Of a stretch of 64,000 nucleotides of DNA, positions 30,281-42,594 are shown one piece after another; position 1 is the stretch's first letter; every line of letters begins with the position of its first letter. The notes under the pieces were generated by a model, which did not search any database, was not told the DNA's origin, and worked only from the letters and a program-made list of their open reading frames with translations. A program made the translations under genes and the position numbers. The stretch comes from a bacterium (lineage in GTDB: Bacteria > Patescibacteriota > Minisyncoccia > Phycocordibacterales > CAIZLB01), in assembly GCA_037127815.1 (NCBI GenBank), contig JBAXXP010000001.1, forward strand, positions 232,174-296,173, written 5' to 3'.

Positions 30281-31128
30281 AAAATCGCTCAACTTCAAGA
30301 AACGACGAACTCAGCATTCCTGAAATTTGAAAATTAAATTCTGTACCAGTTTTAGTGGATAACATTCATGTAGTTTAGGCCATGTGGCCGATGCTACCTG
30401 ATACGTATTCTGTTTGGTCTTTTCAATACTGGAGACAGAGCTCCATGAAGTACTACTTTAAGGGTAATGCTGCATGGGGTCGTTATCGTACTTACTCTCA
30501 AGGAGTATGATAACAAAACAGGTAACAAACAAAAGTGATTGTGGTCTTTTTATTTCCTAATAGGAAATATAAGGGCGTATGGTGGATGCCTTGACACAAC
30601 ATAGCGATGAAGGACGCAGCATGGCGGCGATACGCTTCGGGGAGGTGCCTAGCAACCTTTGATCCGGAGATTTCCGAATGGGGAAACCCAAGAGACTTGA
30701 TCTCTTATCTTACTTTTAAGTAAGGTGCGCACCCAGTGAAGTAAAACATTCTAGTAACTGGAGGAAAAGAAAACAAGTACGTAAGTACACAATTTCGTAA
30801 ATAGCGGCGAGCGAAAACGAAATAGCCCAAACCAGACTTCCACATTGGGGATGACATTTTATCGGTTCTTTAATTTATTAGGGAACTATCATTATGCTGT
30901 CTCCTATGTGGCAGTCTGGGGTTGTAAGATAATAATAGGATATTTATATCCAAAGAGTTACAAAATTTTTTGTTAACAGAACGCGTTGGGAAGCGCGACC
31001 AAAGAGGGTGACAGTCCCGTATGTGAAAATAAAAAATCTCTTCTTTATTACTCTTGAGTACCCCGAGACACGAGTGGCTCGGGGGAATCCAGCAGAACTA
31101 ACTGCTAAGGCTAAATATATGTTGTGAT

Positions 31129-31165
<37 letters not shown>

Positions 31166-32591
31166 CAGTCCGATGAGGACAGTGAAATAGACCTGAAACC
31201 ATATGCCTACAAGGAGTCAGAGCGGACGTATTTATACGATCCGTCATGGCGTGCCTATTGAAGAATGAGCCAACGAGTTAATATGTATTGCTCGGCTAAA
31301 TCCGCGAGGATGGAGCCATAGGGAAACCGAGTATTAATAGTGCGTCCGTATTACATATTAGACCCGAAGCCAATGCGAGCTATCCCTGGTCAGGCTGAAC
31401 TTTGTCGAAAGACAAAGGGAGGGCCGAACCCGTATGTCGTTCAACTCATTGGGATGAACTGGGGATAGAAGTGAAAAGCTAATCGAGCTTGGTAATAGCT
31501 GGTTCTCTCCGAAATAGCTTTTGGGTTAGCGTCGTGTGTTCCTCTTGGGGGTAGAGCACTGGAAGGACTCGACAGGGAGAAATCTCGCGAGTCCTATCAA
31601 ACTCCGAATACCAAGAACTAAAGCACGGCAGTTAGTCCGTGGGGGCTAAGCTCCACAGGACAAAAGGGAAACAGCCCTAGATCCATATTTAAGGTCCCTA
31701 AATCTATACTAAGTGCACTTAAGGTGGTGGAATTTCTGAGACAATGAGGAGGTTTGCTTAGAAGCAGCAATCCTTGAAAGATAGCGTAATAGCTCACTCA
31801 TCGAGAGATTCTGCGCCGCAGATTCGCGGGGCTAAAGTATAGTACCGAAACTTGGGGTGTCCTACTGCTTCGGCGGTAGGGCGCGGTAGGAGAGTGTTCT
31901 TGTCTGCGATGAAGGGGAAGAGGTGACTCACCCTGGAGCGTCAAGAAGTAAGAATGTTGGCACAAGTAACCACAATCGGAGTGAAAAACTCCGACGCCGA
32001 AAGAACAAGGTTTCCTTCGCAATGATTGTCATCGAAGGGTTAGTCGGGCCTAAGGGGATGGTGAGAACCGAACCCGACGGACACATGGTTAATATTCCAT
32101 GACTTCTGTATACAGTGATGAAATGACGGAGTGTAGTATGAACAGCGCATAATCGGATTTGTGTCCATGCTTTAAGGAAGTTCTCTAGGTAAGTCCGGAG
32201 AGCTGATTTTAATATCAATTCCAAATAGAGTGGAGACGTTAGGGGTTCGCCTCTAAATAATTGTTCAAAGCACGCTTCCAAGAAAATTTTCTAAACTTAT
32301 GTATGCGGAAACCGTACCGAAAACCGACACAGGTGTTCAGGTCGAGTAGACCAAGGCGAACGGGTGAGAGGTCTTCAAGGAACTCGGCAAAAAAGCAGCC
32401 GTAACTTCGGAATAAGGCTCGCCCTCCCTAAAAAGAGGGTTGCAACAAAAGTATCCCTGGCAACTGTTTATCAAAAACACAGCTCCCTGCGAACTCGTAA
32501 GAGTATGTATAGGGGGTGACACCTGACCGATGCCAGAAGGTTAAACGTTGAGGGTACTATCGCAAGGTAGTGCTGATTGATGTAAGCCCTG

Positions 32592-32626
<35 letters not shown>

Positions 32627-32987
32627 TCAGCATTTGTTTTTATTAATGAATGCTGAAGAACTAGGACTGTTCATAGATGTGTTGATAAATAATGAAGAAC
32701 CAAAGAATGCAAAGGAAAATTAGAGCTGCCTGTTTCAGTAAAATGAAGCGTTCAGACTGACTATATGCTGGTAAATCTGTGTGTGAAAAACACTGTAGTA
32801 TCTAACACTACTAAGTTATAAAATTCGAAAGAAAATTATTTCAAGTAAAAATGTGATTAGTGCAGACGATCAGCAGGAAAGACTAAAAAGTAATTTTTAG
32901 AATCCTCAGAAACCAAACGTCAGACTAAATAGTAATATTTAGAAGATAGAGTTCGATCTTTATAGCGATATAAAGTTAACATAAATT
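32627..32987 (+). mobile_element. Group I intron in 23S rRNA at the position equivalent to E. coli about 1931 (between CCUAAGGU and AGCGAAAUUCC); no ORF
   Basis: 361-nt insertion splitting a universally conserved 23S block. Contains group I core elements (CAGACTAAATA R-like, AGAAGATAGAGTTCGATC S-like). Boundaries +/- 2 nt. Confidence 0.7.
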
Positions 32988-33316
32988 AGCGAAATTCCTT
33001 GTCAGGTAAGTTCTGACGCGCACGAATGGTGTAATGACTGGGGAACTGTCTCGAAGACCCGCCCGGTGAAAATGCAATGGAGGTGAAGATGCCTCCTACC
33101 TGCAGCTAGACGAAAAGACCCCAGAAGCTTCACTGCAACTTGATATTGATTGTATGTTTTTACTGCGTAGAATAGATGGGAGAGGTTGAGATCCTGATTT
33201 CGGTTAGGGTGGACTCGTCAGTGAAATACCATTCTTTAAAAATATACATTCTAACCTCGACGGAAAAAACGTCGAGAGACAGTATCTGGTGGGCAGTTTT
33301 AGTGGGGCGCTATCCT

Positions 33317-33680
33317 CGAGGGTTTAAATTAATTTTTGAATCCTCGAACTATGGCGCCTCCAGAGATTTGTCATCTCGAAACAAATAAAAAAGGGGGACT
33401 GTAATAAGTAATTATTATTAGAAAAGTTAGTTATATGCTGGAAAATCTGTGTCTTCAATGACTTAGAATGCAAGCTACCTATTAATTTAGGTAACAATGT
33501 TTGCATGCAGACTATCAGCAGGAAAGATTTCTATCACAAAAAGTAAAATTGATGTAATAGAGAAATCCTCAGAGACTATACGCTAACCGTCCAGTAAAAT
33601 GGATGATGATATAGTCCGATCTTTATAGCGATATAAAGCTTACTGAAAAGTAAGGCTTAGTAAAATAAGTAACATAAATG
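33317..33680 (+). mobile_element. Group I intron in 23S rRNA inserted just 3' of the P-loop block (GGGGCGCUAUCCU | CCUAAAAAGUAACGGAGG; E. coli about 2260s); no ORF
   Basis: 364-nt insertion; 5' exon ends in U and intron ends in G. Shares core elements with intron 1 (TATATGCTGG-AAATCTGTGT, ATCAGCAGGAAAGA, GATGATATAGTCCGATC, AACATAAAT). Confidence 0.7.
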
Positions 33681-34066
33681 CCTAAAAAGTAACGGAGGAG
33701 TCTATTAAGGTCAGCTAGGCGCGAATGGAAACCGTGCCGATAGTGCAATGGCATAAGCTGGCTTGACTGTGAGGCGTAAGTGCCAAACAGACGCGAAAGC
33801 GGAGCATAGTGAACCGAGGGTCCGCATTAGATGCGGCCAAAGATTATCTGACAAAAGCTACTCTGGGGATAACAGGCTGGTTGTGCCTAAGCGTCCATAG
33901 CGACGGCACAGTTCGGCACCTCGATGTCGGCTCGACTTATCCTGGGGGTGAAGAAGCTCCCAAGGGTATGGCTGTTCGCCATTTAAAAAGTCACGCGAGC
34001 TGGGTTCAGACCGTCGTAAGACAGGTTGGTCTCCTATCTGCTGCAGGCGTTGATACTTGAGAGGAA

Positions 34067-34097
<31 letters not shown>

Positions 34098-34413
34098 TGA
34101 TCTCTGGTGTACCAGTTGTCTTGCCAAAGGCATCGCTGGGTAGCTATATCGGGAATGGATAAGCTCTGAAAGCATCTAAGAGCGAAGCCAACCTCAAGAT
34201 AAGGTATCGTTTGAGATCCGTGAGAGATTATCACGTTGATAGGCACTAAGTATAAGCATAGTAATATGTTCAGCTGAGGTGTACTAATAAATCGATTCTT
34301 ATTAGGAAATATGAAGATTCACGATCACTTTTGTTTGTGACCTAAATTACAAAATAATAATTCTGCAAGTTTTATTATAGAACCATGAAAAGACCTTTAA
34401 ATTGACCGTTTCG

Positions 34414-34523
34414 TTCTGGTGACTCGTCGGAGGGGCCACACCTGATCTCATTCCGAACTCAGAAGTTAAGACCTCCAGAGGCGATGATACTCACTTGTTG
34501 GGGAAAGTAGCTCGTCGCCAGAA
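34414..34523 (+). rRNA. rrf: 5S ribosomal RNA
   Basis: CCACACCTGATCTCATTCCGAACTCAGAAGTTAAG ... terminal helix TTCTGGTGAC / GTCGCCAGAA. Confidence 0.85.
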
Positions 34524-34637
34524 CATAGCGGTTAATTTAAATATTAAAAGAACTAGCCCATGAAATGAAAATTTTGTGGGTGTTTTTTTGTATTAATTTT
34601 GTATTTCTTCTGTATTGCTTTGTTGCTCATCTCAAAA

Positions 34638-34733
34638 AGATAAACACAAGCTATTTAGAGACTAGTGAGTTGCAACGAACTGAGAGGATTTTCAGCAGAA
34701 AATCATCGTACTCTAAATAGCTTGTGTTTATCT
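34638..34733. repeat. Perfect 23-bp inverted repeat (AGATAAACACAAGCTATTTAGAG ... CTCTAAATAGCTTGTGTTTATCT) separated by 50 nt containing a nested hairpin
   Basis: Direct reading; lies 115 nt downstream of 5S and 28 nt upstream of ATG 34762. Confidence 0.8.
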
Positions 34734-34761
34734 TTGTTACTAACTCTGCTAGAATGTATTT

Positions 34762-40414: not shown

Positions 40415-40602
40415 TACGACCACGCCACTGATGATTTTCACAAATCATTTGATTAAATCGCAGGGGGCCGTCCTAGGAATCTCCCAGGAATATTGAGTTA
40501 GGTAAAACTAATAAAATATTTCAGGCATTTCTAAAGACATCTTTGACAACTAAATGACAACCAACAAACGTCCTTTTTTTTGTTCTGTTTGAGTTTAATT
40601 TT

Positions 40603-42062
<1,460 letters not shown>

Positions 42063-42424
42063 GAACAATTCAATTTGAAAAATGCGTACATGAATTTCAT
42101 GTATTAGCTGAATACGGTTGATCGAACTTAATTTATTAAGCTCAATGAGATTATGCCTCGAGAATGCATAAGGAAGGTATAACCTAAATATACTGCCTCC
42201 TGGGAACAAGGCCAGGCCAAACAGAACAATAATAAGGACGGTTGAGGTTGTCATTTAGTCGCCAAAGTACATATTTTATATGATAAAAGTACTCCGCAAG
42301 CGGGGTTTTTTTATTGCTTTGTTTTTCTTAAAATAGTCTTTAAAATAGACTTGTTTTTAATGGGATAATTTGATACATTATAAACCACAAACAGCAAAGG
42401 TTTGACAAGTCTGTTTGTAAGAAT

Positions 42425-42498
42425 GCGTGTGTAGCTCAGCTGGTTAGAGCACTTCACTGATAATGAAGAGGCCGCAGGTTCGAGTCCTGCCACACGCA
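42425..42498 (+). tRNA. tRNA-Ile (anticodon GAU)
   Basis: GCGTGTGTAGCTCAGCTGGTTAGAGCACTTCACTGATAATGAAGAGGCCGCAGGTTCGAGTCCTGCCACACGCA; cloverleaf with CUGAUAA anticodon loop. Confidence 0.85.
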
Positions 42499-42594
42499 CA
42501 AAGTAAGTCTCAAGTTTGAATCTATAAGTTATAAAATCTGCAGGGTAACCTGTGGATTTTTTAATTGATTTTTGCAATATACCATATATGATAT

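Follow-up and report, generated by a model that had tools for sequence, protein, structure and literature searches.

We describe a 364-nucleotide (nt) insertion in the 23S rRNA gene of a 64,000-nt stretch of bacterial DNA (contig JBAXXP010000001.1, positions 232,174 to 296,173; hereafter the window). The insertion, here called intron 2, is very probably a group I intron without an open reading frame (ORF), seated directly after Escherichia coli position 2262 (site L2262) and working by the bipartite-guide mechanism proposed below. In kind the element is ordinary, being one more ORF-less group I intron among the hundreds catalogued in 23S genes of the Candidate Phyla Radiation (CPR). Its exon guide, in which two separate intron segments would together bind the upstream exon, is the sole feature that might be new. 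The same gene holds another insertion, intron 1, of 361 nt at E. coli 1930/1931 (L1931; window 32627-32987). Insertion sites are given throughout as four-digit E. coli positions, and sampled loci from other genomes by three-digit handles such as L099.

Location and authenticity of the insertion

Alignment of the window gene (30556-34308) with E. coli rrl by MAFFT places the insertion at 33317-33680, and the Rfam large-subunit alignment shows an identical 364-nt excess (377 positions against 13 in the consensus); the coordinates proposed in a first-pass annotation of this DNA were therefore exact. The upstream exon reads GGGGCGCUAUCCU and ends at U33316, the insertion runs from CGAGGG to AACAUAAAUG and ends at G33680, and the downstream exon begins CCUAAAAAGUAACGGAGG, so that the exon-terminal U and intron-terminal G of that annotation are both present. 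The predicted ligated-exon junction is ...GCUAUCCU/CCUAAAAAG..., which may also be written GGGGCGCUAUCCU/CCUAAAAAGUAACGG. L2262 lies in the 5' strand of helix 81, 9 nt 3' of residue G2253 of the P-loop, whose G2251-G2253 (E. coli numbering) occupy window 33305-33307. Hence 'next to the P-loop' is roughly correct, while 'immediately 3'' of the P-site contacts overstates the proximity of a site within helix 81. The two longest ORFs overlapping the insertion, of 60 amino acids (aa; minus strand) and 70 aa (mostly exon), have no Pfam match, and these two gave no Pfam sign of a homing endonuclease (LAGLIDADG, GIY-YIG, HNH or His-Cys), which agrees with the ORF-less state first described.

The source organism is uncultured and rRNA regions misassemble easily, so it had to be considered that the insertion arose from misassembly or a chimera, or that it resembles group I introns by chance. 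The insertion is, however, base-for-base the same in three independent assemblies (ENA ERZ27300127, NCBI GCA_005795825.1 and JGI 3300020158), and is therefore not an assembly artefact. Its boundaries are precise, its removal restores conserved rRNA that matches the empty site of a relative, and its Rfam E-value is 1e-17. We regard such explanations as effectively refuted, their probability being close to nil.

The group I core

The Rfam model Intron_gpI (RF00028) matches 33367-33638 across all 253 model positions with 70.2 bits (gathering score 50, E about 1e-17); intron 1 scores only 31.8 bits. Compared with 100 shuffles, the minimum free energy (MFE) of intron 2 gives a z-score of -5.66, and the MFE fold recovers the hairpin H1, P2, P4-P6 including the P5 extension, P7, P8, P9, P9.1 and P9.2. 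A core covariance model built from ten relatives, which yields 216 intron cores in 100 loci, gives 158 bits to intron 2 and 149 to intron 1. Across a 150-row alignment of the family, the 37 core pairs (P3, P4, P5, P6, P8 and P9, plus P7) are 92% paired, compared with 29-40% in slid controls, percentages that are inflated except at P7, the alignment having been fitted to the model structure. P7 is absent from that structure but still reaches 92.5% pairing, and all five of its pairs show double changes; double-sided changes occur in 36 of the 37 core pairs overall.

The nucleotides expected at the splice sites and at the guanosine-binding site are also in place. P7 carries the canonical guanosine-site pair, G33574-C33616 (G-C in 100 of 150 family rows), and the intron ends in omegaG, G33680; the seven scored L2262 rows all combine the G-C pair with omegaG. 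The internal guide AGGGGGA (33392-33398) would form P1 through its GGGA, which pairs with exon UCCU and places a U33316.G33395 wobble at the 5' splice site, and P10 through its AGG (33392-33394), which pairs with CCU (33681-33683) of the 3' exon. Among L2262 introns the guide covaries with the exon, as GGGA/UCCU, GGGCG/CGCCU (L118) and GGGCGGUC/GGUUGCCU (L075). The annotated assignment to group I is thus upheld by the Rfam score, the wobble in P1, omegaG, the intact predicted core and the lack of an ORF; folding as a group I intron, which it had proposed as a check, gave a P3-P9 core with helices supported by covariation. A match to the Rfam family K10_TLS at 33306-33358 (21 bits, below threshold) was dismissed, being the hairpin of exon, H1 and exon complement.

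The features of intron 2 and its exons are as follows, all on the + strand, with the evidence for each in brackets.

33304..33316: 5' exon end GGGGCGCUAUCCU, equivalent to E. coli G2250-U2262 (E. coli alignment; duplex energy; P1 search)
33313-33316 and 33304-33313: exon strands, the first for P1 with the guide, the second for pairing with intron 33351-33361 (P1 search; duplex energy)
33317..33346: H1, a hairpin from intron nt 1, CGAGGGUUUAAA...UUUGAAUCCUCG, within the P1 loop (RNAfold, -15 kcal/mol; MFE fold)
33351..33361: putative upstream-exon complement AUGGCGCC(U)CC, pairing with exon G2250-U2259 (conserved in eight L2262 introns)
33363..33377: H2, hairpin GAGAU-UUGUC-AUCUC (compensatory changes in all eight introns of the L2262 subclass)
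33378..33391: A-rich linker GAAACAAAUAAAAA (kept throughout the subclass, as judged by inspection of sequences rather than by formal alignment)
33392..33398: internal guide sequence AGGGGGA, with A33392-G33394 for P10 and G33395-A33398 for P1 (pairing search; guide/exon covariation)
33399..33421: P2 hairpin with a GUAA (GNRA) tetraloop (RNAfold; compensatory changes in the subclass; MFE fold)
33426..33431: P3 5' strand GUUAGU, partner 33582-33587 (Rfam alignment; covariance-model covariation)
33436..33568: P4-P6 domain (Rfam; covariation; MFE fold)
33436-33441/33515-33520: P4 (97.8% paired)
33446-33450/33507-33511: P5 (main helix 95.7% paired)
33451-33506: P5a/b extension with a conserved AACAAUG bulge (Rfam; MFE fold)
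33521-33568: P6/P6a (Rfam; MFE fold)
33574..33580: P7 5' strand GACUAUA, with G33574 paired to C33616 (92.5% paired though not modelled)
33582..33587: P3 3' strand GCUAAC (Rfam; covariance-model alignment)
33589..33604: P8 hairpin (93% paired; double changes in all five pairs)
33610..33616: P7 3' strand UAUAGUC (covariation)
33621..33638: P9 hairpin CUUUAUAGCGAUAUAAAG with a GCGA (GNRA) loop, the same as P9 of intron 1 (98.8% paired)
33639-33654 and 33655-33670: P9.1 and P9.2, peripheral hairpins not found in intron 1 (MFE fold; pairwise alignment)
33671..33680: 3' tail AACAUAAAUG ending in omegaG 33680, with the splice site before C33681, E. coli C2263 (other L2262 introns)

A candidate bipartite exon guide

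Intron 2 and a further seven L2262 introns build the stretch of some 80 nt from the splice site to the guide on one fixed plan: H1 starting at nt 1, a linker of 3-5 nt, the segment RUGGCGCC(Y)CC, H2, an A-rich stretch, the guide and P2. H1 varies in sequence and length yet always pairs, and hairpins that differ from it by compensatory changes stand at this place in the seven other L2262 introns and in eight L1931 introns. P2 has a four-base loop throughout the L2262 subclass (GNRA in six of eight) and compensatory changes in its stem. RUGGCGCC(Y)CC, kept in that form in all eight L2262 introns, is complementary to exon G2250-U2259, a stretch that covers the P-loop and the 3' strand of helix 80. 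Pairing the two gives -16.8 kcal/mol, and no shuffle out of 1000 of the 5' part of the intron attained this energy. Were P1 and this helix to combine, exon positions -13 to -1 would be wholly paired, with two intron segments in permuted order.

A comparable arrangement occurs at L1931, where intron 1 and its relatives have H1 from nt 1, a purine linker and a 9-13-nt complement of exon -5 to -13. Here exon and intron show compensatory matches: ACGAUCCUA with UGGGAUUGU in L006, AUCGUCCUA with UGGGACGAU in L053, ACCGUCCUA with UGGGACGGU in L080 and AUAACGAUCCUAA with CUGGGAUCGUUAG in L121. Among 34 introns with a usable 5' boundary, strong complementarity to the upstream exon (z about -2.4 to -5.3) is confined to the L2262 and L1931 subclasses. 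A separate intron in L138 (794-962, minus strand), at site L2593, has a 12-13-nt upstream-exon complement (GCUGGGUUCAGAC with AGUCUGAAUCCGA, z -2.2), and a bipartite guide may exist at this third rRNA site.

We put forward tentatively, giving it a little less than even weight, the proposal that introns 1 and 2 represent an undescribed subclass of rRNA group I introns, in which a short P1 is supplemented by a second segment upstream of the guide, forming an 8-13-bp exon helix stacked on P1 as a pseudoknot. As proposed, the exon contact in this subclass may extend from about -4 to -13 (to -16 in L121), and at L2262 the P-loop itself may be sequestered. A shallow literature search found no description of such a bipartite exon-guide arrangement. 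If the proposal is true, a two-part address would explain retargeting between L1931, L2262 and perhaps L2593 through changes in two short segments, and splicing could be coupled to delayed folding of functionally critical rRNA helices. A real bipartite guide would be relevant to the recognition and switching of target sites by group I introns and to the coordination of splicing with folding at the peptidyl-transferase region; it may also offer a design principle for longer and more specific guides in trans-splicing ribozymes.

Proposed mechanism and its difficulties

Under the mechanism we favour, intron 2 would be transcribed within the pre-23S rRNA and fold into a standard P3-P9 core with a P3/P7 pseudoknot. 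The 5' exon would be held by both parts of the guide, namely the 4-bp P1 (UCCU/GGGA) and an adjacent helix of 8-10 bp between G2250-U2259 and intron nt 35-46, which would keep helices 80 and 81 open until splicing. Exogenous guanosine bound at G33574-C33616 of P7 would attack after U2262; G33680 would then occupy the guanosine site while P10 (CCU/AGG) positions the 3' exon, and exon ligation would restore helix 81. Having no endonuclease gene, intron 2 cannot home alone, and would persist by vertical inheritance. It was probably gained by recombination or homing from an allele occupied at L2262, of the kind whose relatives encode LAGLIDADG_2, or else by reverse splicing.

Several points weigh against this interpretation. 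Besides the inflated pairing percentages, the splice-site helices are short (4 bp for P1, 3 bp for P10), and P1 and the long-range helix would formally cross in a pseudoknot whose connecting loops are long. In the L2262 subclass the upstream exon is invariant and therefore allows no covariation test of the exon-complement helix at this site; conservation, energy and the L1931 analogy, rather than covariation, suggest that it forms. GGCGCC is palindromic, and the adjacent CCUCC pairs with GGGGG of the guide when the intron is folded in isolation, so that the segment could instead act as an exon mimic or in an alternative, switching conformer. Lastly, the sequence comparisons show what the element is, where it begins and ends, its core structure and guide pairings, the empty site of a near relative and its family relations; that it splices, what the long-range helix does and how the intron was acquired are inferences, and in the case of splicing this counts against our account. 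According to its title, a paper by Everett et al. (1999) reports that the L1931 intron of Simkania stays unspliced.

Both the Simkania report and the inferential basis for splicing also lend some support to a different view, that the insertion is unspliced and decayed or tolerated, either as a retained expansion of 23S rRNA or as a segment excised by RNase and not ligated, which would leave 23S rRNA fragmented. Bacterial 23S genes are known to contain intervening sequences that fragment the rRNA, and these have been noted at CPR sites 23IS2 and 23IS4 (PMC11270868), and an intron lacking an endonuclease is at a stage where decay is expected. Against this, intron 2 keeps all core helices intact, along with its G-C site, U.G wobble, omegaG and P10, and related L2262 introns in at least eight divergent hosts retain the same features, which implies purifying selection on splicing. 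Helix 81 belongs to domain V, lies near the peptidyl transferase centre and would be unlikely to tolerate either a 364-nt insert or a break. Nor does the insert resemble the intervening sequences removed by RNase III in bacteria, which are simple extended hairpins at helix tips without a ribozyme core, whereas intron 2 has a full core and sits within a helix strand. We therefore consider an unspliced insertion improbable and retain the self-splicing intron as the preferred explanation.

Kinship of introns 1 and 2

The first-pass annotation drew attention to long blocks shared by the two insertions and read them as two copies of one intron family. Three of these blocks were searched for, GCAGACNATCAGCAGGAAAGA (at 32862 and 33507), TATATGCTGGNAAATCTGTGT (32762 and 33432) and CGATCTTTATAGCGATATAAAG (32954 and 33617); each occurs twice in the window, once per insertion, where none would be expected by chance. 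One further block differs by a base, AGTCCGATC... being AGTTCGATC... in intron 1. Membership of a single family is supported by the fit of both introns to the core model and by their common 5' architecture. The blocks do not support a special kinship: two of them are core elements found family-wide at many sites and in many phyla (P4/J4-5/P5 and P5'/J5-4/P4'/P6), and inspection of the family alignment suggests the same for the J6-7/P7 block. When species-representative genomes were scanned with the shared block GCAGACNATCAGCAGGAAAG and their 23S exons mapped to E. coli, it was found in at least 120 genomes (at least 120 loci) from many phyla, at L1917, L1923, L1931, L2604 and other sites.

Could one of the two introns nevertheless have been copied recently from the other within this genome, intron 2 having moved from L1931 to L2262, for instance by reverse splicing? 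The exclusivity within the window of three blocks of 21-22 nt each would fit, as would the rare 5'-domain architecture common to both introns. P9 is identical at 18 of 18 positions, and its exact sequence, CUUUAUAGCGAUAUAAAG, is limited to these two introns and L099 among 150 rows. Yet the pairwise comparison that the annotation had called for shows, P9 apart, only family-level closeness: core identity is 63.6% over 184 model columns, near the family median of 62.4% (46 full-length cores), and intron 1 ranks as only the 18th closest of the 62 neighbours of intron 2 by covariance-model alignment. That alignment was used in place of a ranking of relatives by summed BLAST scores, which was rejected as misleading since many loci hold several introns; segment-wise local identities among the introns did not discriminate. 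The introns differ at the guanosine-site pair (A-U in intron 1, G-C in intron 2) and at the terminal nucleotide (U and G, respectively). The nearest P9 variants in the family differ from CUUUAUAGCGAUAUAAAG by one compensatory pair, and common variants by two compensatory changes; the private identity could stem from conversion over a short tract or from AT drift in parallel.

The 5' domain of intron 2 is closest to those of L2262 introns in other hosts (82% to L138 over nt 27-131), with H2 and the A-rich linker nearly identical. Because of this homology intron 2 most likely reached L2262 from another L2262 intron and not from intron 1, and a recent copying event within this genome appears quite unlikely. 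As judged from their sequences, introns 1 and 2 are members of the same family and the same architectural subclass, and not recent copies of each other.

Occupancy and turnover at L2262

Insertions at loci from the species-representative scan map mostly to L1917, L1923, L1931, L1951, L2500, L2593 and L2604. L2262 is occupied in only four of 77 sampled loci (L069, L075, L084 and L118) and uninterrupted in 73. A metagenome scan with a pattern for the 5' domain added L2262 introns in L123, L138/141/151, L144, L147, L148 and L149/153, bringing those beyond intron 2 to 12 in total. The strict pattern, TGGCGCCNCCAGAN{3,8}GTCATN{10,30}AAGGGGGACT, found no locus in the metagenomes; the relaxed pattern gave 38 loci, nine of them real L2262 introns and the remainder chance matches in GC-rich DNA. 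Every other L2262 intron is preceded by U, ends in G and is followed by CC(U/C)AAA, with a tail of the form ..AAC(A/G)..(A/U)UG.

LAGLIDADG_2 endonucleases are encoded by three of these introns, L075 (Ca. Hinthialibacteria OLB16), L084 and L118 (Fimbriimonadales), with Pfam E-values of 1e-43 to 1e-46. They share with intron 2 an identical site, the U/...G/CC splice nucleotides and a guide that follows the exon, and score 99-117 bits against the core model. In contrast to intron 2, they are 932-962 nt long, contain an endonuclease ORF of 207-228 aa, and have a simple P1 near the 5' end without an exon-complement segment. Two L2262 introns of the same subclass as intron 2 have small ORFs in P6, of 84 aa in L144 (oriented nt 359-613) and 83 aa in L148 (printed intron nt 251-502); neither has a Pfam match or is LAGLIDADG, and the L144 product looks like a coiled coil.

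The presence/absence survey suggested by the annotation was most informative for L099 (CAINHC010000005.1), whose 23S exons are 98.5% identical to those of the window. L099 shares the same kind of L1931 intron, but its L2262 site is empty and reads as the predicted ligated exons of the window over 73 of 73 nt of the printed stretch. Following ...GGCACCU it also carries an insertion of about 880 nt (oriented about 1812-2691) with no counterpart in the window, at a site that we take to be L2500. Occupancy of L2262 and L2500 thus differs between such close relatives in the way that introns would lead one to expect, intron turnover must be fast, and the presence of three LAGLIDADG_2-encoding introns among the other occupants marks L2262 as a recurrent homing site. 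Intron 2 is thus an ORF-less member of the homing-site introns of L2262, a recurrent but rare site. A literature search for L2262 as a named intron site returned nothing relevant; it is presumably among the sites listed for organelles.

The host and other features of the rRNA region

Rfam places the rRNA genes at 30556-34308 (23S), 34415-34523 (5S) and 40596-42075 (16S, followed by tRNA-Ile). The nearest named relative of the 23S gene belongs to a Candidatus Paceibacterota metagenome-assembled genome (89.7%), and this, together with the unlinked rRNA genes, indicates that the host is most likely a low-GC bacterium of the CPR/Patescibacteria, Paceibacterota-like. Gene order is unusual (30556-34523 and 40596-42499), with 23S-5S, about 6 kb, 16S and tRNA-Ile all on the same strand. 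The intervening 6 kb hold five protein genes, for an unknown 251-aa protein, FtsW/RodA, SecD, SecF and a 240-aa UPF0259-like protein. The 16S gene has no insertion. Between 5S and the next ORF there is a perfect 25-nt inverted repeat, AAAGATAAACACAAGCTATTTAGAG and its complement (34636-34660 and 34711-34735, with a 50-nt spacer), which might act as a long terminator or as a processing stem, encode a small RNA or represent a miniature mobile element. Relative to E. coli the 23S gene also has insertions of 82 nt after 271 (30831-30912), 40 nt after 285 (30927-30966) and 24 nt after 1556 (32249-32272), and deletions at E. coli 161-174, 1707-1725 and 2819-2828, probably lineage-specific expansions and reductions of peripheral helices.

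Intron 1 belongs to an L1931 subclass with A-U at the guanosine pair of P7 (R element CUCAGAAACCAAACG, S element AGAUAGAGUUC), its key bases being A32911, U32953 and the terminal U32987. A terminal U before AGCG is found in all seven A-U members at L1931 (window, L099, L006, L018, L025, L040 and L053). A terminal G is found in 29 of 39 G-C family members, while the L2262 introns are G-C with terminal G in seven of seven; 3' splice sites were called by regular expression, which is reliable for L1931 and L2262 only, counts for other sites being noise that we did not use. Replacement of a G.(G-C) triple by U.(A-U) would make chemical sense and may represent a natural change of nucleoside specificity, or else a decayed site. 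Decay is suggested by the presence of only about three good pairs in P7 of intron 1, and the seven A-U introns may form a single clade, in which case they record one event and not seven.

Comparison with known introns

The catalogue of Tsurumaki et al. (2024, PMC11270868) lists 968 insertions in CPR 23S genes, of which 433 are group I and 222 ORF-less group I; 82% of CPR 23S genes carry insertions, and these are described as removed from transcripts. The same paper cites an earlier groundwater-metagenome report of group I introns in CPR 23S genes. Intron 2 would resemble the catalogued group I introns in residing in the same gene and, on our assignment, the same host group. In that set, forms with and without ORFs share sites, LAGLIDADG_1 and LAGLIDADG_2 are typical, and sites cluster in domain V (PMC11270868). 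Sites 1917, 1931, 1952, 2593, 2604 and 2657 are named there, and 23IS9-11, which may include L2262, appear only in figures. That study analyses no RNA structure and describes no bipartite exon guide, in contrast to what we propose for intron 2.

A second point of reference is provided by the IB4-type introns at L1917 and L1931 of Thermotoga, Synechococcus, Simkania and organelles (PMC1995217, PMC11019260), which share core blocks with intron 2. The common blocks are the R and S elements (...CAGAGACUA.../...GAUAUAGUC...), P4-J5/4 (GCAGACNAUCAGCAGGAAAG) and P9 with a GCGA loop, and in the IB4 introns as in intron 2 a (G/A)ACAAU bulge is conserved within an elaborate P5 extension. The IB4 introns at L1917 and L1931 lack P2 (Haugen et al. 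2007, PMC1995217), whereas intron 2 has a P2 with a GNRA loop. The core blocks and P5 bulge of intron 2 would fit the IB4 lineage, and its clear P2 would not. It differs further from the L1917 and L1931 introns in its site, in the elaborated P1 loop of about 80 nt with its exon complement, and in having no endonuclease gene.

A functional parallel to the exon helix is the P(-1) element of Tetrahymena pre-rRNA, for which Woodson and Cech are said to have shown that 5'-exon pairing upstream of P1 affects P1 formation, as we propose here. P(-1) is reportedly a competing helix within the exon that inhibits P1, in contrast to intron 2, where the intron supplies the complement. A complement supplied by the intron should free the end of the exon for P1 and extend exon binding.

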